Below, one piece after another: positions 7,204 through 47,485 of a stretch of DNA of 58,955 nt (position 1 is the first letter of the stretch; each line of letters begins with the position of its first letter). Both the position numbers and the translations under genes were made by a program. This DNA is from an uncultured Thiotrichaceae bacterium (GTDB lineage Bacteria > Pseudomonadota > Gammaproteobacteria > SZUA-229): positions 1-58,955 of the forward strand of contig CAZYYW010000003.1 of NCBI GenBank assembly GCA_964651445.1. The letters are read 5' to 3'. Under the pieces are notes generated by a model, which did not search any database, had not been told where the DNA came from, and saw only the letters and a program-made list of their open reading frames with translations.

Positions 7204-8538
7204 ATGGCATCACATCGTTTAACACCCAGTCTAAAACGCGAACTCGCAATAATTTCTGCGTGGATGTTTTTCATATTATTGCTCGGCAGTATAATGGGCG
7301 CTATATCCTTGTTTCTGTTTCTTGGCCTACTTATATACACCGTCTGGAATTTATACAACCTTAACCAGTTAAGTAAATGGTTAAATAATCCTTCCAAAAA
7401 AATGCCTGAAGTGGTCGGCATTTGGGACGATGTGTATCATCAAATATACCAGCTATACAAACGCCAACGAAAGTCACGGCGCAAGCTCACTGCAATACTC
7501 AATCGCTATCAAAAATCCACACAAGCCCTGCCCTACGCCACCATCATATTGAACCAATCGAATGAAATCGAATGGTTTAATCCTGCTGCAAAAGGCATGT
7601 TTGATTTACACAATAAAAGTGATGTCGGGCAACGCATTGGTAATTTAATTCGTCAACCAGTATTCATACAATACCTTGCAAAAAAAGAATTTACAAAATC
7701 TCTGAAATTTTCTACCAACCAAATAAACATCATACTCAGCATAACACCCTATGGTGACGGGCAATTTCTTGTAAGCGCCCGCGACATCACTGCCGTCAGC
7801 AAACTTGATAAAATGCGCCGTGATTTCATCTCAAATGCATCACATGAGTTACGAACACCACTGACTGTTATATCAGGCTATGTGGAGTTTTTACAGCATA
7901 ATACCGACGAAAAAATAAAAAAACCACTCGATAATATTCAGACACAAACACTTCGCATGGAAAAAATTATTAGCGAGCTGATAGAGTTGGCAAAACTCGA
8001 ATCATCAATAAGCATCGATTATACAAAAACAGTGGATGTCGAAACCCTGTTAAACGATGTTTATAACGAAGCCTTGGCCTTCGATAACAATAAACATAAT
8101 ATTACGCTGGATATAGAAATTCAAAACTCGACTAGCAAGAACAATTCAAAATTGAACGGAAGTTATGAAGAGATACGAATGGCTTTATCAAATTTAATGA
8201 CCAATGCCATTCGTTATACCAATGAAGGTGGCACTATAAAGCTATTTTCACAAAGCCACGGTAACAACCTTTCAATCGGCGTACAAGATAGTGGTACAGG
8301 CATAAATTATAAACATATCCCAAGGCTCACTGAACGTTTTTACCGCGTAGATAAAGGTCGATCAAGAGAATACGGTGGCACCGGATTGGGTCTGTCAATT
8401 GTCAAACATGTGTTAGACCGGCACAACGCAACATTACAGATACAAAGTGAACAGGGGAAAGGCAGCACATTTCGTTGCGACTTCCCCTCTTTTATCAGTG
8501 CCAATATAAAAAATGATGCATCCTCTCTTCTCTTATGA
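7204..8538 (+). CDS. phoR: Sensor histidine kinase PhoR
   Basis: N-terminal TM, PAS region (EIEWFNPAA), H-box DFISNASHELRTPLT, ERFYRVDKGRSR and GGTGLGLSIVKH. Confidence 0.93.
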   Translation: MASHRLTPSLKRELAIISAWMFFILLLGSIMGAISLFLFLGLLIYTVWNLYNLNQLSKWLNNPSKKMPEVVGIWDDVYHQIYQLYKRQRKSRRKLTAILNRYQKSTQALPYATIILNQSNEIEWFNPAAKGMFDLHNKSDVGQRIGNLIRQPVFIQYLAKKEFTKSLKFSTNQINIILSITPYGDGQFLVSARDITAVSKLDKMRRDFISNASHELRTPLTVISGYVEFLQHNTDEKIKKPLDNIQTQTLRMEKIISELIELAKLESSISIDYTKTVDVETLLNDVYNEALAFDNNKHNITLDIEIQNSTSKNNSKLNGSYEEIRMALSNLMTNAIRYTNEGGTIKLFSQSHGNNLSIGVQDSGTGINYKHIPRLTERFYRVDKGRSREYGGTGLGLSIVKHVLDRHNATLQIQSEQGKGSTFRCDFPSFISANIKNDASSLLL

Positions 8539-9731: not shown

Positions 9732-9876
9732 TGTTCTGGTCAAGTCCAACCGGACACTCTCTTTAGAGAGTTTTCATAGTTAATTGGTGATTGATCACCA
9801 TTAGTAGTATGCAGCCTCTCAAGGTTGTCATACGTTTGCTGACATACCAGCCGACAATACGTCGTGAGTATAAATC
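9732..9876 (-). mobile_element. Internally deleted IS3-family remnant (right end)
   Basis: Minus strand encodes DLYSRRIVGWYVSKRMTT (rve core) fused at an ACAAC microhomology to NLERLHTTNGDQSPINYENSLKRVSGWT* (IS3 OrfB C-terminus). It ends in an IS3-type IR (plus strand TGTTCTGGTCAAGTCCAACCGGACAC from 9732). Confidence 0.8.
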
Positions 9877-9893
9877 TGTAGTGGTCTAATAGA

Positions 9894-10270
<377 letters not shown>

Positions 10271-10284
10271 ACAACAAGACGCGA

Positions 10285-10313
10285 ATCATACGGACTTAAT
10301 GATAAAATTGCAA
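10285..10313 (-). promoter_or_regulatory. sigma70 promoter of tRNA-fMet
   Basis: TTGCAA-N17-TATGAT followed by a GC-rich discriminator. Confidence 0.7.
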
Positions 10314-10565
10314 GATAATTAAGGGGAAAGTGAAAGAAAAAAATTTATTGGTGCGTTCAATTGTATTGCCTCAGATTTTATCTGAAAGTTACTAAATAAA
10401 TTTAGATGTAGCGATAGCTGTGGATTTTAATTGTTAAGGGTCTCAGAGTAAGCATCAAAGTATATTGAGGTACTGGTTGTTTTTATGGGGCAATTATTTT
10501 TCCAGAGGTGGCCGTTAATATGCAAGTTGCAGTGCCTAGTCCGAATAATCCACGGAACTCGAGAA

Positions 10566-10787
10566 CTAACCCTTAGGATTCAGCCCACCCAGAATAAATT
10601 TGAGGATGTCACCTGGCTGACATTCCAAAATCTAACAGATTTTCCCCAGTGTGGAGAAACGCACGCACTTAACTTTACCCGTGGGCAGTAGCGATAAGTT
10701 CTGCTCGGTAATGCCAATTTTAGTGGCAAGTTTTTTGCCGCGAATCTTAAGTTTAGCTTGTATGACATCTAGAGATACTCTGATCAA
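10566..10787 (-). pseudogene. Cro/C1-type HTH regulator (YozG-like) pseudogene
   Basis: Not in the ORF track. Translates LIRVSLDVIQAKLKIRGKKLATKIGITEQNLSLLPTGKVKCVRFSTLGKIC*ILECQPGDILKF, with one in-frame TAG at 10632-10634. Confidence 0.75.
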
Positions 10788-10886
10788 ATCCAATTAATTT
10801 GGGTTGACATTAGCCTAAAATAATAATATTCCTATTCGGTGCTGAGGATCGAAGCTCAAGGATGGTGGCAAGGAATCAACAGCCCT

Positions 10887-10916
10887 GTTGGGCTTCGCGC
10901 CAGCGCACCAACCTAC
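10887..10916 (-). repeat. GTAG-type REP-like palindrome
   Basis: Minus strand GTAGGTTGGTGCGCTGGCGCGAAGCCCAAC: GTAG tetranucleotide plus imperfect GTTGG...CCAAC stem. Confidence 0.5.
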
Positions 10917-11004
10917 AGGCGGCACCTTCTTCGTGGCAACGTTATTCACGATAAAATAACTAGAAAAGCCTTAAATAGGAGTCATTGGTGCCGAACAGGC
11001 CTAT

Positions 11005-11045
11005 AAAAAATTAAACCTACGGATGACGGTTCGTAGGTTTAATTT
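11005..11045 (-). terminator. Hairpin/terminator downstream of the large secreted protein gene
   Basis: 14-bp perfect inverted repeat AAATTAAACCTACG/CGTAGGTTTAATTT with a T-run on the minus strand, 19 bp after the stop codon. Confidence 0.6.
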
Positions 11046-11063
11046 GTTTTACCGCCCTACTCA

Positions 11064-14000
11064 TTACCTTCGAAAGCGAGATAGCTGGCGCAGGTGCATT
11101 AGTAATGACAGCAGAATAAGTAACCCCCAACCTAATGCTCCGCCACCTCCACCACCACTTGCGCCATTGCCGTTATTTGTGGTGGGCGTTACCACGCCAA
11201 CTTCGACAACTATCACAAGGGCGATAGCAGTTAAGGTGTTGCCAGCTGAATCCGTCACGCTGTAACTAAAGCTATCTTCACCGATAAAGCCATTGTTGGG
11301 TGTGTAGATAAAACCATTTCCCTGTACTACAACACTGCCATTCGCGGCTTGTGCGATGACGGTAAAGCTGAAACTATCACCGATGTCTGGATCGTTTATT
11401 TCTGGCGTTAGTAATATCGAAGCCTGATTAACGGTAACATTGACCTGTAAACTTGCTGTCAGTGGCGCGCGATTAACAGCATTAACTTGGACATTCGCCA
11501 CGGCAGCAAAGGGCAGGCTAACACCACGAGCATTGGTCACCTGAAACTCAAAGCTGTCAGCGCCAACAAAATTCTGACTGGGCTGATAAAACAGCAAGCC
11601 AGCTAAGCTACTGGCAGTGCCTTGCGCGGGCTGACTGACAATACTAATATTGAAACCGGGATCGCCATCAAAGGTGACTAAAGGTGCTACACCGTCACTT
11701 TTCTGTCCCTGTTGCGTATCGATGAGTGCCAAGGCGGATAATGGCCCGGGAATGGCGCTGAAAACGGCGGTAGCCGTGCGGTTATCGGTAAGCCACAATT
11801 GACTGCCAACCTCGTTACCTTCTGCATCACCTTGCCATTGTGTTAATTCAAAACCATCATCGGCTATGGCTGTCAGGGAAACTTGCTCTTCATTGTTATA
11901 ACGGTAAACCCCCGGCGAAATTTCTATGCCGGGTGGCGACGTACTTACGCTGCCATTGCCTAAAATAGTGATAGTCAAATCTGTTGTTTGTGCTGGGTCA
12001 ATACGGCGGCGCAGTAAATGCAGTGCGTCAGCTCCGTACGGCGGCGCATAACTTTGCTGACTAACCCAGAACGCATAACGGCCATCAGCAGACAAAGCAC
12101 CGGTGCGCACAGCTGCACTGCTCAGCAAGGTATCGCTGATCCAGTTAGGCACAGCCACGCCAACAGGAAAGACATTACTGCTGCGTGCAACAAATAAGTC
12201 TTCTACCGTATTGGTATCATTATTCACAATATTGGTGTGCGATGAAACCCAGGCAACTTTACTCACATTACTTCCTGCTAGGCGATCTTGCCCAACAGAA
12301 ACATCCTGCAATGGAAAAGCTGCGTCCATCGCTGACGCTAAACCCTGAAAGCTACTGCTTGCCAGCGATAAGGAACGCGAAAAGAAACTGCCACCGGCAA
12401 CTTCACCTTGTGACAGGTAAATATCTTGATTAATAAACTCCTGATTGGTATCGACGGGAAGTAGATTTTGAACGCTCAAAAAAGCCACATCATCAGCATA
12501 CGGAGCAATCGCAAACACGCTGCCACCACTGCCAGGGATAGTCACTTCTGAGCGGATAGAAACATCCAGATCACCACCGGCATCACTGCCGGAAAAACGG
12601 ACAAGGCGTAAATCCCCGTCACTTCGGCTGTTATACACCAGATAACGCCCATCGAGGGTGACTTTGGGATACTGGGAAGCAAGTGAAGGCATGGTTGTCG
12701 CATTAATATTACTTACCGGATGGGTAATGTAGTTATCATCAAAATAATTACCGTTGCCATCTGGATCCAGATCAACCATATACACCTGCGTGCCAGGATT
12801 AGGAAAAGCCGCTAGGTAGGTAGCATTACGTTGTGACGAGAAAAACACATAACGTCCACTGAAAGTCGTGGACACACTGAAATTTCCAGACGATGATAAA
12901 TTAGCGGGCGTTCCATCGGGTGCCTGACTAACCACGGCAATGCGTTCGCTGTGCAGGTCTTTTATATACAGATTAAAGTCTTGTGCGCCGCTAACCAGAT
13001 TGCTCGCCTCACTTTCAAATATTAAGTAACGACCCGAACCCGACAGTGCCGGATTTTTACTGTGATCGTCGGCTAGCTCACCCGCTGCATTACGACTGGC
13101 AATGGTCAAAGAGCTACCCTTCCAGATAAACACATCACGGCTACGGTTGTTGTCACTGCGTACAAAGCGGTTGCCGGTGGAAGTAAAGGCTACCACCTCA
13201 CCATTGTAGGCAGTGGCAAATTGATCGATGGCACCGTTGTTACAGGCAACCTCAGTACCACTGATATTAAAGCAGGTGTTATTGTCGATGCGCGTGCTGA
13301 TAATATCGATGTCAGCATCCTGTACCACTGGGTCGATACGTTCGATAGCCAGACTCAATTCACCGGTATTGCCGGCAAGATCCTGCATTGCAATCATCAA
13401 ACGATTTTTCCCCATAGGCAAGGTAATCGTGGCACCGTATTTTGTTGGAAAACCGGTGACACCGCCCAATGTTAGATCCTGCGACATCTGATAGCCTTCC
13501 AGCTCACCCGCAATCAATAGTACCGGCGCGGCACCACTCATGCCACTACCGGCATCGCTTACTTCTAACACTAAATCAACGCTGTCGGTGAATAGCTGAT
13601 AATCATCACTGCCGCCAATTGGCACCACTGGCGTCAGTTGCAATACACTGAGCTCAGGCGCAGCAATATCGTAATACACGGTATAGCTTTCAGTACGCGT
13701 ATTTCCAACCCGGTCTGTACCACTGACACTGAGGACTACGTCACCACCCACAATTGCAGCGGCTTCCATTTGTTGCTTGAGTTCGGTTTGTTGCAAACTA
13801 AAGCTCTCGCCAGCTGGAAATACCCAGTCTGCATTTCCAGCAACCGTGAGCTGTCCATCCGCCGCATTCGAACCATAATCCTCAATACTGAAATATAACG
13901 GCGTATTCGGGCTGACCATTACCCCTAGAGCATGATTTTGCTGTAATTCAAAATTTAGACGAGGCGCGGTATTGTCCACTTGTATGCGAATTTGCTGCAC

Positions 14001-27113: not shown

Positions 27114-29653
27114 GCGCCTCTGGCTTCAGCCAATTCGGCTTCAATGGTTATTTCAGCAAAAGCCGATCCAAGTGCATCACTGCCTGCAACGGCTAATGGA
27201 ATCCAAGCGGATGCGTCGGGAATTGTCTCGTCGATCACCAACGATAAGGTACAACTGTTAGCGCCCTGCTTCACAACCACGAAAGTTTCCGCCGATAGTC
27301 CGAGACGACTGGCTTCAGCATTGTTTAAACGCACACAGATAGACTGTGCATCAACCGTTTGCTGTAGCGAAGCGGCGCGCCGCACGATGGCATCGCTGGC
27401 ATACATTGGAACATCCGATGAGCGATAGAGAGTACCGTCTTTCGCCGCTATAGCCGATACTTTAGCGGTAGTATCATTTAATGTGTTTGATAATTCGATA
27501 GTTTCGCACTGCGCGCGTACTTCGGCTTTTACATCATCAGATGACATGTATTCAAAACCATCAACGCCCGTTAAATTGCCTAGCACTCGTAAAATTTTCC
27601 ACGCTGGGCGAGCGCCACCTTTTGGTTCAACCACACCTTTGAAACTCTGCCAAAAACCTTCGGCATTAACATAAGTACCCGAAGTTTCCATAAAGTTTGC
27701 GGCGGGTAACATCACGTCTGCCACCTGCTGAACAGAGGCTGAGTTGTAGGCTGAAATGGATACCACGAAATCGGCTGCATCCAACGTTGCCATTAAGGCA
27801 CTGGCATCTGCCGCGTCGGTATCCGGTTCGATATTGAGTAATAAACAAGCCGCCAAATTTTCTTCGTTCAATTCGGCAATGTTTTTACCGGTAACGATAT
27901 CGTCTGTTACACCAGCCGTACCACGATGCGGCACCGCACCGGCCAACCATGCACCCGCCGCATTACAGCCGTCACTTAAATAACCAAACACACTATTGGT
28001 TTCTTTGGCAATGGCTTCGCCCAGTACACGCAGCACAGAAAATTGCGGATGCATGTGTGCCAAATTACCGAGCAATACCGTTGCCGCATTGGCTTTCTTT
28101 AACTGCTGCGCGATAGACTTTTGTGCTTTATTCGCTTTTGCGCCTGCCAACAGTGTTGACAGATTTTCCGGTATTGCGTTTTTACTTAACTTGTATGCAG
28201 CCGCGGCAATGGCTGATAATTCAGCCACCATGTGTTGCTGAGCGACGGCGATATTATTGCTAACATCATAATTAAAATCATAAAGCCGAGGATTAACAAA
28301 CGAAATTTTTGCGTTGTTATTAACGCTGGCTTTGCGTAAACGCAGGTTAGCGATGGGTTGCTCTTTGCGTACATTAGAACCAATTAATAACGCGGCATCG
28401 AGTTTTTCTAACTGCTCGATGCTTTGTCCTAACCAAGGCATCACCGGCGCGACATCCTGATCGGAAAAGTCAGATTGGCGTAGGCGGTGGTCAATATTAC
28501 CACTGCCCAACACGCGCATTAATTTCTGCGTCAGGTATTGTTCTTCCAGCGTTGCATTCACTGAAACCAATGCCGCTATTTCGGTTTTTACCGGCGCTGC
28601 TTCTGTCTCCGCATCGGTTCCCGTGTCTGTAGATTCGTCAGTAGGTTTGTCTGCTGCTTGCTCTTCCGACTGCTCAGCTTCTGCCGCTTCGGCTTCTGCC
28701 AATTGTATTTTTAGATCAGCCGCGGCTTTAAATTTATCTGCTACCAATTGCAGTGCTTCGTCCCAGTTTGCTGCCTGCCATTTGCCATCACGTTTAATCA
28801 TTGGCGTGGTTAGGCGATCATCACTTTCTACGCCTTCATAACTGAAACGATCACGGTCTGAAATCCAGACTTCGTTAATGGCTTCGTTTTCACATGGCAC
28901 CACACGTACGACTTCACCACGTAAAATATGTACATTTAGATTTGAGCCGATGCAGTCATGAGGTGCGATAGTTTTATGCTGCACCATTTCCCAGGCGCGA
29001 CCTTTAAAGCGTGAAGGTTTGGCAGTTAAGGCACCGACCGGACAAACGTCAATCGCGTTGCCTGACATTTCAGAGTTGACGCACTCATCAACAAAGGTGG
29101 AGATCAATGCATTTTCACCACGGCCGGTCATGCCCAGCTCACGAATACCGGCAATTTCACGACCAAAACGGACACAACGGGTACAGTGAATACAGCGGGT
29201 TAACTCCGTGGTAATCAACGGCCCGATATTTTTATCAAATGCCACTCGCTTGGCTTCCGTGTATTCGGATACTGACTGACCATAAGCCACTGCCACATCC
29301 TGTAGTTCACATTCACCGCCCTGATCACAGATTGGGCAATCCAACGGGTGGTTAATCAGTAAGAATTCCATGACTGACTTTTGCGCGTCTTTTGCGTATT
29401 TTGATTGTGTGTGTACGATCATGCCATCCATCACTGGCGTGGCACAGGCGGGCAATGGCTTCGGCGCTTTTTCTACTTCGACCAGACACATACGGCAGTT
29501 CGCCGCAACGCTAAGTTTTTTGTGGTAACAAAAACGCGGTACTTTTATATTTTGCGCATCGGTGACTTCAATCAGCATGGCACCTTTGGGTGCTTGTACT
29601 TCATTACCGTCAACAGTGATGGTGACAAACTCTGTATTATTTGCTTCTGACAT
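27110..29653 (-). CDS. nuoG: NADH-quinone oxidoreductase subunit G
   Basis: FCYH...[20 protein letters not shown] and CIHCTRC Fe-S motifs. Confidence 0.97.
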
Positions 29654-40700: not shown

Positions 40701-41321
40701 TCACTTCTTAAAACCGGTAGCCAAGGCATACATCTCTCGACTTCGCGCCCTCGAAGCCTTCGGCTTTCGCATGACGACCTTTGAAAAACTGGCTTTGAGT
40801 TCTTTGCTGTAAGCATCAAAACCCTCGCCCTGAAATAACTTTACCAGCAAAGCGCCGCCCGGTTTTAACACCTGCCGCGCCAAATCCAGTGCTAGATCAC
40901 ACAAATAATAGGCGCGCGGCATATCAACCGAGTCCATGCCACTTATATTGGGGGCCATATCGGAAATAACAAGGTCTGCCTGTTTTGTTTCCATTACTGA
41001 CATAAGTGATTCAAAAACCGTGTCTTCACGAAAATCACCTTGTATGATGGTGACACCGTCTATTGGTTCCATTGGCAAAATATCCAGCGCCACAATGCGG
41101 CCTTTGTTCCCCAGTTTTTTGACACAGTATTCTGACCATCCACCGGGTGCAGCACCCAGATCAATGATGATCATTCCGGGTTTTAGCAGGCGATCTTTTT
41201 TATCGATCTCGATAAGTTTGTAAATCGCGCGCGAACGATAACCATCCTGCTGTGAGCGACGCACATATTCATCATCGAAATGTTCTTTTAACCAGGACTT
41301 ACTGCTTTTGCTTTTTGCCAT
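40701..41321 (-). CDS. rlmE: 23S rRNA Um2552 methyltransferase RlmE (FtsJ)
   Basis: [10 protein letters not shown] and [10 protein letters not shown] motifs. True start ATG 41321 ([10 protein letters not shown]). Confidence 0.97.
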
Positions 41322-41336
41322 GTTTTTTATTTTTTT

Positions 41337-41416
41337 CCGCAAATGGTCGCTCTTACACATCCATGTGTCCGCGACATTAGTGCTGTCCTTGCACGTCAAC
41401 GCGAATAAACGCAAAT
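41337..41416 (+). repeat. 10-nt periodic arm (CGCAAATGGA/CGCGAATAAA/CGCAAAT) interrupted by a 52-nt GGA-hairpin element (41347-41398)
   Basis: Removing 41347-41398 restores CCGCAAATGGACGCGAATAAACGCAAAT. The insert is homologous to 41968-42017. Confidence 0.75.
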
Positions 41417-41492
41417 AAAAAACGAATTAATTTTTTATTTTATTGGTACAGATATCACCGACATGGCGCAAAAAAGTGTTTATTGCCCTTAG

Positions 41493-41520
41493 CTGCCTAC
41501 TGCAAACTGCCTATTACCGA
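41493..41520 (+). repeat. Heptamer array directly after the yhbY stop codon
   Basis: CTGCCTA CTGCAAA CTGCCTA TTACCGA. Confidence 0.55.
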
Positions 41521-41820
41521 CTATTTCCTCGGTAATTCTATGATAGCTTGGTCGGGATTAACACGATAAACCGACAAGGTTTTGCCTATCGACTGCACTT
41601 CTTGTGACTGACTTTGCTCGCAGATATCAGCAATCATCTGTTTTCGCTGTTCGCGGTCATCGACAGACAGTTTTATTTTCACCAATTCGTGGTGCAGCAG
41701 TGCAATTTCAAGCTCCGCTAACACTTCTTCCGTTAGGCCTTTTTGCCCCAACATGATAACGGCTTTTAAGCTGTGACACTTTGCGCGTAAAAATTTAATT
41801 TGTTTTTTTGACAGGGACAT
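41521..41820 (-). CDS. yhbY: RNA-binding ribosome assembly protein YhbY (CRM domain)
   Basis: LRAKCHSLKAVIMLGQKGLT and HELVKIK motifs. Start ATG 41820. Confidence 0.95.
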   Translation of the reverse strand: MSLSKKQIKFLRAKCHSLKAVIMLGQKGLTEEVLAELEIALLHHELVKIKLSVDDREQRKQMIADICEQSQSQEVQSIGKTLSVYRVNPDQAIIELPRK

Positions 41821-41840
41821 AAGAAAACTCCAAAATATAT

Positions 41841-42030
41841 TTTGCCGCGAAGGACGCAAAAAGCGCAAAAGAAAACAAAGTTATCATTTCAAAAACACTC
41901 ACCTGGGTAACGGCCGCAGCAAATAAAAATTTTAATAATGATCCGTTTATATTTGCGTTTTTTGCACTGACGTGCATGGATGCACTAATGTCGCGGGCGC
42001 ATGGAGCGCAGGAGCGACCTTCGCGGCAAA
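41841..42030. mobile_element. Gene-less cassette bounded by 30-bp periodic inverted repeats; the right arm carries a 50-nt insertion
   Basis: Left arm TTTGCCGCGAAGGACGCAAAAAGCGCAAAA (41841-41870). The right arm (41951-41967 plus 42018-42030) aligns ungapped at 26/30 once 41968-42017 is removed. Confidence 0.7.
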
Positions 42031-42039
42031 AAAATGCTT

Positions 42040-42516
42040 TTAAATATATTTAATATCAACAATTTCCAGCGAGCGCAGCCCACCGGGTGTCTTCACTTCT
42101 GCAACGTCGCCTTCTTCTTTACCAATCAAGGCGCGGGCAATCGGCGAACCGACTGAGATCATGTCGTTTTTAATATCGGCTTCATCTTCACCAACGATTT
42201 GATAGGTCATTTCATCACCGGTTTCCTCATCGGCGACATCGACCGTGGCACCAAAAACCACTTTGCCGTTGGCATTCACCGTGGTGACATCAATGATGGT
42301 GGCATTGCCCAGCTTGCCTTCTATATCTTTAATGCGACCTTCAATAAAACCCTGCTGTTCACGCGCCGCATGGTATTCAGCATTTTCTTTCAGGTCACCG
42401 TGCTCACGCGCGGTAGCAATGTCTTCGATCACTTTTGGGCGATCAGTTGACTTCAGCTGATAAAGTTCATCCTGTAATTTTTTTGCACCGCCTACGGTGA
42501 TTGGTACTTTATTCAC
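42040..42516 (-). CDS. greA: Transcription elongation factor GreA
   Basis: [18 protein letters not shown] motif. Confidence 0.98.
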
Positions 42517-45500
42517 GCTATTGTCTCTTGTGTCTGTTTAATTGTTTTGTGCAAATCTTGTAACTTTGTAATTGAATTCATTTGCAAATAATCCAGCGCT
42601 CGAACGGTGGCATTGGCACCCGCGATGGTGGTAGTGTAACTCACCTTGTGCTGTAGTGCAGAGGAGCGAATGGTGTAGGAGTCACTAATGGCTTTCTTGC
42701 CTTCTGTGGTATTTATGATTAGCGCAATATCACCATTTTTTATCATATCCACGATATGCGGCCGACCTTCATACACTTTATTGGCTACTTTGCATTCAAT
42801 GCCAGCGGCGCTTAAAACACCGGCAGTACCGCTAGTGGCTACCAACTTAAAACCTTTAGCAACCAATTCTTTACCTAGAAAAACCGCCTGCTCGCGGTCA
42901 CGTTCACGTACACTGATAAAAACTCGACCTTTAGTTGGCAACTCTACACCCGCACCAATCTGTGCTTTCGCAAAGGCCATGCCAAAGCTCTCCCCAATCC
43001 CCATGACTTCTCCAGTGGACTTCATTTCCGGCCCTAATAGTGGATCGACGCCGGGGAATTTCACAAAGGGGAATACCGATTCTTTTACCGCATAGGTTTT
43101 AGGCACAACTTCTGCGCCTACGCCTTGCTGCTTTAAAGAAATACCTGCCATACAACGCGCGGCAATTTTTGCCAGTGGTACACCCGTGGCTTTGGAAACA
43201 AACGGCACGGTACGTGATGCACGTGGATTTACTTCCAGTAGATAGATATTGAAATTCGGTTTATCCTTCTCTTGCTGCTCACTTTGTGGCTGTTCGCTAA
43301 ATTGTATCGCAAACTGAATATTCATTAAACCAACAACGCCTAATTTCAAGGCTAACTGACGGGTTTGCACGCGCAATTGATCTTGCACTTCAGCGGATAA
43401 TGAATACGGCGGTAAGGAACAAGCAGAATCACCGGAGTGTACACCGGCTTGTTCTATGTGTTCCATAATGCTGCCGATCAAAACTTGTTCACCATCGCAA
43501 ATGGCATCGACATCAACTTCTACTGCATCGTCAAGAAAACGGTCGAGCAATACGGGCGCATCGTTGGACACGCTAACCGCATTTTTCATGTAATACTTCA
43601 AGTCGGTTTCGTTGTACACGATTTCCATAGCGCGACCACCCAAAACGTAAGAAGGTCTGACCACCAGAGGAAAACCAATTTCAGCAGCCCCTTTTACGGC
43701 TTCTTCTGTGGAACGTGCCAGGCGATTTGGTGGTTGCTTCAATCCCAACTCGTTAACTATTTGCTGAAAGCGTTCACGGTCTTCCGCCAGATCAATACAA
43801 TCGGGCGTGGTGCCAATAACCGGTACGCCAGCGGCTTCGAGATCACGCGCCAGCTTTAACGGCGTTTGCCCACCATACTGAACGATAACCCCTTTGGGTT
43901 TTTCGATGTCCATTACTTCCAGCACATCTTCTAGCGTCAGTGGCTCAAAATAAAGACGGTCGGAGGTATCATAGTCCGTTGATACGGTTTCCGGATTGCA
44001 GTTAATCATGATGGTTTCATAACCGTCATCGCGCATGGCAAAGGCAGCATGTACACAACAGTAATCAAACTCGATACCTTGGCCAATGCGGTTGGGACCG
44101 CCACCTAAGACAACAATTTTTTCTCGGTCAGTGGGCTGCGCTTCGCACTCTTCTTCATAAGTAGAATACAGGTAAGCCGTAGCCGTAGAAAATTCTGCGG
44201 CACAGGTATCGACACGTTTGTACACCGGTCGAATACCCAGTGATTGGCGATATTCACGCATGGCTTTTTCGTCAACTTTTAGCAAGCCAGCAAGGCGGCT
44301 GTCTGAAAAGCCTTTGCGTTTCAGAGCAAATAAATCTTCTTTGGACAGGTTGTTTAGTGCCTCGCCTTGCGCTGCCCTTTTGTCTAGCGCCAACTCTTCT
44401 TTGATGAGGTCTTCTATTTGCACTAAAAACCAGGGGTCGATTTTTGTCAGGTTGAACAGCTTTTCATTCGAGTAACCGCGGCGGTAGGCATCACCGAGGT
44501 ACAACAAACGATCAGCACCGGGAAGACTTAATTCCTGATTCAAGAATGACTCAATTTCATCTTCTGCCATGTCTGGGTCGAGCGCCGGGCTAAGGCCATC
44601 AATATCGATCTCAAGGCCACGCAAGGCTTTTTGCAGCGACTCCTGAAAGGTACGACCAATTGCCATCACTTCGCCGACGGATTTCATCTGCGTGGTCAGG
44701 CGGTTTTCAGCTTGCGGAAATTTCTCGAAGGTGAAACGCGGAATTTTTGTTACCACGTAATCTATCGCTGGCTCAAACGATGCCGGTGTTGCGCCACCGG
44801 TAATTTCGTTCTGCAATTCATCCAATGTGTAACCAATCGCCAGCTTGGCGGCAATTTTGGCAATGGGAAAACCAGTAGCTTTGGATGCCAACGCCGAGGA
44901 GCGAGATACCCGTGGATTCATCTCGATGATGGTCATTCGACCATCCGCTGGATTCACCGAAAACTGCACGTTGGAGCCACCGGTTTCGACGCCAATTTTA
45001 CGCAATACGGCAATCGACGCATCACGCATCTGCTGGTATTCTTTATCGGTTAGGGTTTGCGCGGGCGCGACGGTAATCGAATCGCCAGTATGAATCCCCA
45101 TTGGGTCGAGGTTTTCAATTGAACAGATAATGATGCAGTTGTCGTTCTTGTCACGCACCACTTCCATCTCGTATTCTTTCCAACCGAGAATGGACTCTTC
45201 AACCAGCAACTCATTAACCGGCGACAAGTCCAGACCACGGTGGCAAATTTCTTCAAATTCTTCCTTGTTATAGGCAATGCCACCGCCACTGCCGCCCATG
45301 GTGAAGGAAGGCCGAACGATGGTGGGGTAGCCGACCTGCGCTTGCACCTGAAAGGCTTCTTCCATGCTGTGCGCAATAGCGGCACGCGGCATGTCGAGAC
45401 CAATTTCTTCCATCGCTATCTTAAATTTTTCACGGTCTTCCGCCATGTCGATAGCATCTTTACTGGCACCGATCATCTCGACGCCAAATTTTTCCAGAAT

Positions 45501-45818
45501 GCCTTCGCGATCTAAATCCAGCGCACAATTTAACGCGGTCTGTCCGCCCATAGTGGGCAGCAATACATCGGGCTTTTCTTTTTCGATAATGGCGGCAACA
45601 GACTGCCAGGTGATGGGTTCAATATACGTCGCGTCAGCGGTTTCCGGATCGGTCATTATGGTTGCCGGATTGGAGTTCACCAAAATGACACGAATGCCCT
45701 CTTCTCTCAACGCCTTACACGCCTGCGCGCCAGAGTAGTCAAACTCACAGGCTTGGCCAATAACAATCGGCCCGGCACCGATGATTAATACGCTGTTTAT
45801 GTCTTGTCTTTTAGGCAT
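42513..45818 (-). CDS. carB: Carbamoyl-phosphate synthase large subunit
   Basis: [30 protein letters not shown], duplicated ATP-grasp domains and MGS domain. Confidence 0.99.
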
Positions 45819-45851
45819 AGTAACTATTTTTCCGCAAACAGCAAAAAAGCT

Positions 45852-46348
45852 TTAGTCCGCGAATAACGCAAAAGACGCGAAAAAAGCAAATTAAATATTA
45901 TGTTTATCATCGTAATTCCAGACTATTCTTCGAATACCTAGCCTTGCCACTCCAAAATTTAATAAAAGTCCTACAGTCAATCCTAATGCTTTCAGGTAAT
46001 TCATTACTTGCGCATCATGCTCCTTATTGAAGGCCGACAATGCTTTTAGCTCAATGAGCAACCTATCATCCACAACAATATCAGCGATATAGTGACCAAC
46101 CTCTATGCCTTTATAACTGATAACAAACTGCGGCTGCCGCTGTATAGGAATACCTGCTTGCGTTAGCTCCATACACAATGCGTTCTCATACACTTTTTCC
46201 AAAAAACCGGCACCTAAGCCATGACTAACATTCTGCGCGCATTTCAATACACGTTCACTTAGCCCGCCACCACAAACCATAAAACCTCCCTGTTTTCAAA
46301 AATAAATGTTTCGCTTTTTTCGCGTCTTTAGCGTTATTCGCGGACTAA
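45852..46348. mobile_element. Cassette of the GxxExxY gene bounded by 36-bp inverted repeats, inserted between carA and carB
   Basis: TTAGTCCGCGAATAACGCAAAAGACGCGAAAAAAGC (45852-45887) and its reverse complement at 46313-46348 match at 35/36, with internal 9-nt periodicity. Confidence 0.8.
45891..46280 (-). CDS. GxxExxY protein (PD-(D/E)XK nuclease superfamily)
   Basis: GFLEKVY signature, IADIVVDDRLLIELKA (D...ExK), AQVMNYLKA and GLLLNFG; SD GGAGG. Confidence 0.92.
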   Translation of the reverse strand: MVCGGGLSERVLKCAQNVSHGLGAGFLEKVYENALCMELTQAGIPIQRQPQFVISYKGIEVGHYIADIVVDDRLLIELKALSAFNKEHDAQVMNYLKALGLTVGLLLNFGVARLGIRRIVWNYDDKHNI

Positions 46349-46354
46349 CAGCTT

Positions 46355-47485
46355 TTAAGTCTTTTCCATCAGCGCTATAAAATGATCAAACACCGGTGCT
46401 ATATCGTGCGGCCCGGGACTGGCTTCCGGGTGCCCCTGAAAGCCGAAAGCGGGTTTATCGGTACGCTGTATGCCTTGCAATGAACCATCAAATAGCGAGC
46501 GGTAAGTTGCCTCTAAATTATCCGGAAGACTGTCTTCATCAACCGAAAAACCGTGATTCTGGCTGGTAATCATAACTTTTTTGCTGCTTAAATCTTGCAC
46601 CGGATGATTAGCACCGTGATGGCCAAATTTCATTTTTTGGGTTTTTGCGCCACAGGCCAATGCCAGTAGCTGGTGCCCTAAGCAAATACCAAAGATTGGC
46701 AGCTCGGTTTGTAAAATCTGTCGTATCGCGTCGATGGCATAGTCGCACGGTTCAGGGTCGCCGGGACCGTTGGATAAAAACACACCATCCGGCGACATCG
46801 CCAACACTTCGCTGGCGGGGGTTTTTGCCGGTACCACTGTAACCTTACAACCGCGCGCTACCAACATACGCAAGATATTGCGTTTTACACCGTAGTCGTA
46901 GGCGACGACATGAAATGTTGCCGCTATTGCTTCTGCTGGTTGACTGGTTGCCAGATTCCAGACACTGTCCGTCCAGTGATAGATTTCTGAGGTGGTGACT
47001 TCTTTGGCTAAATCCATGCCTTTTAAACCGGCAAAGGCGCGGGCTTTTTCAGTGGCGGAGGTTGCGACATCAGCCACATCAGTACTGGCTATTATGCAAC
47101 CACTCATAGCGCCCTTATCACGCAGCAAGCGAGTTAAACGCCGGGTATCGATGTCTGCTATAGCCACCGTATTATTATCAACCAGATAGTCCTGCAGGCT
47201 TTTTTCACCGCGCCAGTTACTCATCACCATAGCGCTATCACGAATCACCAAACCGCTGGCATGTATGCCTGCCGCTTCTTCATCCGCTGCGTTAGTGCCA
47301 ACGTTGCCGATATGCGGATAAGTTAAGGTAACGATTTGTTTGCTGTAGGAAGGGTCAGTCAGAATTTCCTGATAACCGGTCATTGCGGTATTAAAAACCA
47401 CTTCGCCGATGGTTTCGCCGTAAACGCCGATGGACTTGCCGTAAAACAAGCTTCCATCTTCAAGCGCTAAAACAGCAGTGGTCAA
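46355..47485 (-). CDS. carA: Carbamoyl-phosphate synthase small subunit
   Basis: [29 protein letters not shown] and [12 protein letters not shown] motifs. Confidence 0.99.

Follow-up and report, generated by a model that had tools for sequence, protein, structure and literature searches.

The question raised by this locus is why the spacer between greA and yhbY carries periodic inverted arms with no gene between them. The window, that is, the whole stretch of 58,955 nucleotides analysed here, holds carA, a GxxExxY gene, carB, greA, yhbY, rlmE and ftsH, all on the minus strand, and the greA-yhbY spacer is 219 nt long (Table 1). The GxxExxY gene, located between carA and carB, has on either side a 48-nt arm; the two arms are 88% complementary and are likewise built of CGCRAA 9-nt units. 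This cassette (45852-46348), about 4 kb from the greA-yhbY element, is the consensus-identical and best-kept copy of the arms.

The window sequence was matched in hydrothermal-vent metagenomes only. Among the GTDB species representatives, unclassified Gammaproteobacteria come closest, at a GreA identity of 78-82%. Five closer relatives (L083, L084, L085, L211 and L212; GreA 87-96%; one labelled Thiotrichaceae) were found through the GxxExxY protein.

Table 1. Positions of the genes, arms and repeated modules in the window and, where a locus is named, in other contigs
Feature	Position	Strand	Remarks
carA	46355-47485	minus	
carA-side arm of GxxExxY cassette	46301..46348		1 mismatch to consensus
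GxxExxY gene	45891-46280	minus	129 aa; TIGR04256, E = 3e-39
carB-side arm of GxxExxY cassette	45852..45899		0 mismatches to family consensus TCCGCGAATAACGCAAAAGACGCGAAAAAA
Period-10 arm fragments	window 45826-45850; L085 4360-4386; L211 2300-2322		
carB	42513-45818	minus	
greA	42040-42516	minus	stop codon 8 nt from the outer arm of the element
Interrupted arm, outer part	42014..42031		GCGACCTTCGCGGCAAAA; pairs with 41840-41857 (94%)
Repeated module, 51 nt	41963..42013	minus	TCCTGCGCTCCATGCGCCCGCGACATTAGTGCATCCATGCACGTCAGTGCA; originally described as a 50-nt insert
Interrupted arm, inner part	41935..41965		GTTTATATTTGCGTTTTTTGC; pairs with 41856-41876 (81%)
AT-rich filler (loop)	41881..41934		no gene; unlike the fillers of orthologous elements
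Plain arm without module	41840..41880		TTTTGCCGCGAAGGACGCAAAAAGCGCAAAAGAAAAC; three CGCRAAnnn units, GCCGCG subtype; profile E = 8.7e-7
yhbY	41521-41820	minus	TIGR00253, 85 bits
X', inverted copy of arm plus module, 97 nt	41334..41430		directly 5' of the start codon of rlmE
rlmE	start codon at 41322	minus	ftsH next in the minus-strand gene set
Module copies	L130 1311-1352; L189 4332-4370; window 41350-41398		hairpin loop in L130; inverted in the window
Module copies in L204	14074-14101 and 14280-14307		inverted pair around a compact hairpin
PF05635 cassette	L211 6121-6539; L212 4681-5028		24-nt inverted arms of heptamer units (AAGTAGTAAGTAGTAAGTTATAAG)

Structure of the greA-yhbY element

The element (41840-42031) is a 192-nt imperfect inverted repeat of 9-nt CGCRAAnnn units, interrupted by about 50 nt. 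Its left arm reads CGCGAAGGA CGCAAAAAG CGCAAAAGA and, as originally predicted, consists of three CGCRA units with a period of exactly 9. This plain arm is the 3' arm in the direction of transcription from greA to yhbY. The outer arm pair (41840-41857 and 42014-42031) is 18 nt long and 94% complementary, and the inner pair (41856-41876 and 41945-41965) is 21 nt long and 81% complementary with 68 nt between its halves. When 50 nt, starting at 41964-41966, were removed from the right arm, it matched the left arm without a gap at 25 of 30 positions. Thus, the predicted ungapped alignment holds, but with 25 and not 26 matches. The predicted interruption is also present, but, far from being anonymous DNA, it consists of a repeated module, an inverted copy of which lies elsewhere in the window (Table 1). 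The element is a composite of a plain arm, an unrelated filler, and an arm carrying this second repeated module of 51 nt.

We next give the distribution of the arms in the window. The pattern CGCRAANNNCGCRAA, with at most one mismatch, occurs 14 times, versus 2.0 ± 1.4 in shuffled sequences (7-fold), and none of 100 shuffles reached 14. Nine of the 14 occurrences lie at the greA-yhbY element or around the GxxExxY gene. A profile built from 141 arms matched the 59-kb window at 45851-45887 (E = 9e-12), 46313-46348 (2e-10) and 41838-41873 (9e-7), and at no further significant place. The arm profile therefore matches both sites, and the unit consensus is common to them, as had been proposed. A weak profile match at 29379-29397 (E = 0.085) lies inside a coding sequence and was taken to be a chance match.

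A single ORF of 30 aa or more covers the filler (41795-41977, minus strand, 60 aa); it overlaps the start of yhbY and had no NCBIfam match. The prediction of periodic inverted arms without a gene between greA and yhbY was thus confirmed, with no credible ORF. The copy differs from the arm consensus at 7 of 30 positions. It is probably a decaying passenger in situ, and nothing indicates a required function. The direct repeat AAATATATTT is present at 41833-41842 and 42042-42051, around the element; the microhomology of a deletion is an equally possible origin.

The transcribed strand of the element folds at -72.1 kcal/mol (z = -5.1 versus dinucleotide shuffles). The AT-rich, interrupted stem of about 40 bp does not have the form of an intrinsic terminator, namely a short G+C-rich stem with a U tract. 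In a promoter and terminator scan, no terminator-like site was detected in 41250-42100, and no sigma-70-like site was detected on the transcribed strand. No Rfam match at E ≤ 1, rRNA included, was obtained for window 41000-47000. These observations bear on the possibility that the element is a functional feature of the operon (a terminator or attenuator of greA, a processing or stabilising hairpin of the mRNA, or a protein-binding array regulating carAB-greA-yhbY-rlmE), with the family resemblance being secondary. The strongly stable RNA fold would suit such a role, but the result of the scan would not.

Dispersed copies and the arms of GxxExxY genes

Metagenome contigs were scanned for the exact pattern CGCGAANAACGCNAARGACGC, and at least 120 loci were obtained. 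Among the matches listed, only three carry GxxExxY or carAB, and most hold no gene. The three GxxExxY genes are located between carA and carB (two loci) and in a GC-rich, planctomycete-like contig (one locus). At the other loci listed, an inverted partner is usually present 10-90 nt from the arm. Among these matches there are 57-61 inverted arm pairs, and the hairpins are mostly 68-150 nt long. In the same matches, 53 of 61 pairs are between ORFs (11 convergent, 12 tandem and 4 divergent); for 26 of 61, either no ORF or an ORF on one side only was called, and many of these pairs are near contig ends. The latter is as expected for repeats that break assemblies. Such hairpins break metagenome assemblies and also create spurious ORF extensions in annotation.

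The arms of the family are built of units of 9 nt, sometimes 10 nt, whose CGCnAA core is invariant, and they start with (T/G)CCGCGAA. The arm subtypes are TCCGCG, GCCGCG and CACCGCG. The palindrome extends to TTAG-(T/G)CCGCG...CGCGG(A/C)-CTAA, with an A-rich 5' flank and a T-rich 3' flank. The logo of 62 hairpin flanks contained this extension of the palindrome only and no non-palindromic target duplication. Since the flanks are palindromic (TTAG...CTAA), a TA duplication is not separable from the palindrome. The data are consistent with the original prediction that the arms are the mobile cis-unit, but the evidence consists of presence/absence polymorphisms; neither a transposition event nor an unambiguous target-site duplication was seen.

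To describe the pairing of the arms, covariation was analysed in 60 hairpins. In total, 84.3% of the cells were paired, versus 35-48% in slid controls, and double-change cells numbered 132, versus 82 ± 9 in shuffles. Columns 6/63 were U-A in 35 hairpins and G-C in 18, and columns 14/55 were A-U in 14, G-C in 14 and U-A in 13. The CGC and AA positions were invariant across the 60 hairpins. Hairpin pairing is maintained in the family.

The contig depth was in the same direction as the contig scan. In run X1, the depth was about 100 on the plain arm (41840..41880) versus 27.5 in the flanks, with rises at 41839-41869 and 41963-42024. On the module, it was 123-133 in X1 versus 27.5 in the flanks, and 1279 in X7 versus 2.8. 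For the carB-side arm, contig depths in the source metagenome summed to 653, versus 25 on the flanking single-copy DNA (about 25-fold). Copies of the arm and the module are also present on other X1 contigs whose coverage (27.7-31) is that of the window contig. Judged from metagenome contigs, the arm family is multi-copy and dispersed.

The 51-nt module contains two small internal hairpins and had no match in Rfam. It is a high-copy repeat and sits in the loops of hairpin elements or forms their outer layer. In L204, GTCCACAGATGGT, the module and CGCAAATGCACGCAAATAAAAAC together make up the arms, about 100 nt each, of a long-arm element.

Inverted repeats with CGCNAR units flank every one of the 20 GxxExxY genes examined, which range from Gammaproteobacteria to Planctomycetota. 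The Planctomycetota loci (L206-L210) were retrieved by the protein and not by the arm. One of the 20 genes (L162) encodes a protein 28-33% identical to that of the window. L008 and L033 have a 60%-identical GxxExxY gene in the carA-carB interval, and their arms, which are period-10 variants, are confined to the surroundings of this gene. The window, L083, L084 and L216 have an identical 38-nt 3' arm, with coding sequences 79-83% and third codon positions 58-65% identical. Gene-flanking arms are 97-100% identical where third codon positions are about 60% identical. In the 30-nt core, gene-flanking copies have 0-1 mismatch (one exception is 3 off), and gene-less copies are 1-7 off. Judging from these identities, the gene-flanking arms are under strong constraint, a point that would also suit a role in the operon.

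Within the 59-kb window and the 20-kb loci L083, L084, L206 and L210, arms were found only within about 5 kb of GxxExxY. This clustering would also fit local duplication or an operon-specific role. In L083 and L084, arms occupy every spacer of the cluster and are absent elsewhere in the 20 kb, and the window likewise has copies in the carA-rlmE cluster only, which is again a point in favour of an operon feature.

An Isosphaeraceae contig (L206) contains a tandem array of at least nine units of 147-148 nt around its GxxExxY gene (9815-11515). The 148-nt unit consists of an arm, ATGAACAAGACG-GCGG-ATGGTCAATAGGTTATGA, and arm'. Since the units keep the first 12 and the last 18 nt of the gene, they are internal-deletion derivatives of the gene cassette. 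With these units, and with a family that is dispersed, multi-copy and mostly gene-less, the non-autonomous, MITE-like reading in the original prediction was largely supported. The members have a MITE-type architecture in that they are non-coding, intergenic and bounded by inverted repeats. Their termini are common to the GxxExxY cassette, and GxxExxY is not a known transposase.

A gene-less carA-carB spacer of 312 nt was observed in Candidatus Thiodiazotropha (L019, 3460-3743), with an arm-like remnant, TTTGCGGTGATTTTCGTTTATTTGCGGCT. The related L033 has its GxxExxY gene at this site, and L019 is a candidate for a true scar.

The GxxExxY protein of the window (129 aa) belongs to TIGR04256/PF13366, a family with many thousands of uncharacterised members. 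It is of the PD-(D/E)XK type, and E28, D67, E77 and K79 are invariant. The structure model, which is confident (pLDDT 86.5), weakly resembles the nuclease domains of Cas4, lambda-exonuclease-like proteins and AddAB. A sequence search of the PDB gave no match, and relatives of GxxExxY were not found in viral contigs. GxxExxY diverges in step with carB and GreA, in a constant ratio to them; therefore, vertical descent fits better than recurrent homing.

The intact L083 hairpins showed in Rfam only a sub-threshold resemblance to a plant miRNA precursor (28 bits versus 80). In the literature on GxxExxY, on PF13366 and on the arm sequences, no description of the repeats was found. Both the repeat family and its predicted nuclease partner appear to be undescribed. 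Based on the results for the arms, we consider it quite probable that the greA-yhbY element, gene-less and partly decayed, belongs to a dispersed family of intergenic repeats that are palindromic and form hairpins.

The greA-yhbY spacer and the orientation of yhbY in relatives

The original prediction had considered a GxxExxY gene in the greA-yhbY spacer of relatives. In the relatives described below, the spacer holds a compact hairpin, arms with filler, a PF05635 cassette, another palindrome, or nothing.

Relatives with GreA 91-96% to the window: In L083 (96%), the spacer holds a compact 73-nt hairpin. In L084 (91%), consensus-like arms surround about 120 nt of unrelated filler. In L211 and L212 (92%), the spacer contains a gene for a 115-aa PF05635 "23S rRNA intervening sequence protein" without CGCRAA arms.

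More distant relatives: In L085 (a Thiotrichaceae contig; GreA 87%), an unrelated 150-nt palindrome (GAGACCTTTGCACGATA...TATCGTGCAAAGGTCTC) lies 3' of greA at 8150-8300, and yhbY is not adjacent. In an X7 contig (a more distant, weak match; 86% identity), greA is joined to yhbY without an element. In 78 GTDB relatives without GxxExxY, no periodic CGCNAR arms were detected within 7 kb of greA.

Since the content of the spacer changes rapidly within the clade and the 78 relatives are arm-less, a conserved greA terminator or regulatory hairpin does not fit. The arm pair is thus neither unique to this spacer, given at least 120 loci, nor conserved in relatives lacking GxxExxY. An operon feature is further opposed by the same hairpins at more than 100 unrelated loci, by the different contents of the spacer in relatives with GreA 87-96%, and by the 7 of 30 positions at which the window copy is off the consensus. 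On balance, we regard this explanation as unlikely.

The original prediction had also offered the scar of a lost gene. In the fillers of the window, L083 and L084, no remnant of GxxExxY or of the IVS protein was detected (all E > 0.4, tiny database), and the fillers are unrelated between orthologous sites. Thus, a gene-loss scar is not supported here, although an old decay is possible. The PF05635 gene in the same spacer of L211/L212, the L206 units, which are exact internal deletions of the gene cassette, and the arm-like remnant in the gene-less carA-carB spacer of L019 would each agree with a cargo gene (GxxExxY or the 23S-rRNA-IVS four-helix protein) having been lost between greA and yhbY. 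However, the fillers gave no better than E 0.4 for either protein, the arms of the L211 cassette are heptamer units and not CGCRAA, and most members of the family are compact hairpins with loops of 10-40 nt, too small ever to hold a gene. A scar at this site is therefore very unlikely in our judgement, and we retain the reading as a gene-less member of the repeat family.

The X' copy is bounded by an 11-nt direct repeat, TTTTTTATTTT (41323-41333 and 41431-41441). A 98%-identical X3 contig from another sample is without exactly 41323-41430 (108 nt), and the 11 letters fit both sides. Either an insertion with duplication or a deletion via microhomology would explain the polymorphism. Two inverted copies of arm plus module, about 100 nt each (41329-41432 and 41935-42035) and about 80% alike, bracket yhbY.

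In 49 of the 50 GTDB relatives with an adjacent yhbY, this gene is on the strand opposite to greA. In the window, in L083 and L084, and in L211/L212, it is co-directional with greA and rlmE, and each of these has hairpin elements on both sides of yhbY. We infer that recombination between inverted arm copies flanking yhbY produced this clade-specific inversion. If so, a concrete cause is offered for local rearrangements of this kind.

The same two facts, the inverted copies on either side of yhbY and the strand distribution of yhbY, would also be expected if the arms were by-products of the inversion, that is, inverted duplications at its breakpoints and not repeat insertions. However, the arm and the module are both repeated elsewhere in other contexts, L204 has the same pair of arm and module around an unrelated hairpin, and the copy on the rlmE side is absent in the 98%-identical strain, which keeps the orientation of yhbY. 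These results suggest that the repeats are more likely the substrate of the inversion than its product, and we hold an origin as by-products to be highly improbable.

The only GTDB relative with yhbY on the same strand is L020. Its 1.9-kb carA-carB insert is an unrelated S9-type peptidase without arms. Since the insert is unrelated and arm-less, the orientation of yhbY in L020 arose independently.

Relation to known systems and possible mechanism

To our knowledge, an enzyme behind palindromic intergenic repeats is known only for REP/RAYT and for IS-derived MITEs. As in REPIN/RAYT systems, many short, hairpin-forming extragenic repeats accompany one gene flanked by inverted copies (20 of 20 for GxxExxY), the gene and its synteny are inherited vertically within the clade, and the gene-flanking copies are the best conserved. 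In contrast, GxxExxY is a PD-(D/E)XK protein (Cas4/RecB-like) and not an HUH Y1 (IS200/IS605-like) transposase. The arms here are 35-48-nt arrays of 9-nt units, whereas REPs are 20-25 nt, and the copies here cluster near the gene and can form tandem arrays.

Correia/NEMIS in Neisseria, ERIC/IRU in enterobacteria, RUP and BOX are co-transcribed bacterial MITEs or palindromic intergenic repeats. The present family resembles them in its length of 70-200 nt, its terminal inverted repeats, its intergenic location in transcription units, its size variants by internal insertion, and its long RNA hairpins. It differs from them in that no IS-type transposase with the same termini and no clear target-site duplication was found, and in the 9-nt periodicity of the arms with an invariant CGCnAA core.

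The IVS of Coxiella burnetii is 428 nt long, with a 28-bp stem of terminal inverted repeats around the S23p ORF, and is excised by RNase III (PMC4990558). As in the present family, ORF-less versions of the 23S rRNA IVS exist, and the distribution is sporadic (PMC4990558). The gene cassette is structurally very similar in having an inverted-repeat stem around an optional small ORF, and a gene of the S23p family (PF05635) occurs in the L211/L212 spacer. The present elements differ in being located in the mRNA spacers of housekeeping operons, not in an rRNA helix (9, 25 or 45), and in that the cargo is a predicted PD-(D/E)XK nuclease.

A PF05635-like gene flanked by 43-nt inverted arms was also observed in a GC-rich contig (L147, 2941-3519). 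A gene-less compact hairpin with the same arms follows directly, and the layout is that of a GxxExxY cassette plus an empty hairpin.

Homing endonucleases of the PD-(D/E)XK type, both free-standing and intron-borne, include I-Ssp6803I and I-Bth0305I. GxxExxY had a weak fold match to a homing endonuclease at rank 39. The likeness consists of a small nuclease gene between conserved genes, at the same site (carA-carB), in patchily distributed lineages. The difference is that the divergence of GxxExxY tracks that of carB and GreA and that no cleavage site is known. We also know of no homing genes accompanied by dispersed gene-less hairpins.

We class the element as a MITE/REPIN-like, IVS-like hairpin repeat and infer its mobilisation by the predicted GxxExxY nuclease. 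In this mechanism, the recognition site of the predicted nuclease would be the periodic CGCnAA arms, probably when extruded as a hairpin or cruciform. The nuclease would then cut at the arms, thereby creating or maintaining gene-less copies in trans. The hairpins would be non-autonomous elements that are propagated or maintained in trans, as in RAYT/REPIN or IS/MITE pairs, but with an enzyme of the PD-(D/E)XK type and not of the HUH or DDE type. Recognition and cutting of the arms by GxxExxY is the mechanism that we consider most likely, and it is put forward tentatively.

The element would be transcribed within the co-directional greA-yhbY-rlmE-ftsH genes, giving a long, imperfect double-stranded RNA stem. 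This stem could be cut by RNase III in the manner of 23S rRNA IVS stems and would not act as a terminator.

The main interest of the locus lies in its implications for the GxxExxY family. A periodic-arm repeat family is tied to a small, uncharacterised predicted nuclease, and the role of PF13366/TIGR04256 becomes testable by means of arm hairpins. This tie rests on the arms at every GxxExxY gene examined, their occurrence across phyla, their conservation above that of synonymous sites, and the deletion derivatives in L206. If the proposal is true, a PD-(D/E)XK enzyme would be the basis of a partnership like that of RAYT and REPIN, with populations of dispersed and tandem gene-less hairpins.

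There is, in addition, a structural link between the GxxExxY family and the 23S rRNA intervening sequences, the origin of which has been a question since about 1990. GxxExxY proteins may be the dedicated nucleases of pan-bacterial, IVS-like hairpin cassettes, and the 23S-rRNA-IVS four-helix proteins may be the cargo of sister cassettes with periodic arms of their own. This wider idea is speculative, and we lean against it somewhat; if true, it would account for the two protein families and for the origin of rRNA intervening sequences, which has long lacked an explanation.

Further periodic repeats were observed beside the arms described above. In L096 (2270-2490), and also in L202 and L205, nested palindromes of further families lie beside a consensus arm; in one of them, a hairpin of GTCATCCTGAGCGAAGCCGAAGGA is enclosed by CGCAGAGGCGCAAAGACGCAGAG arms. 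These genomes seem to contain several repeat families with periodic arms. Fragments of period-10 arms (TCCGCAAACAGCAAAAAAGC; CGCAAATGAACGCGAATGAACGCGAAT) directly border the arms of GxxExxY cassettes on their outer side (Table 1), which suggests nested or adjacent insertions of a second arm type.
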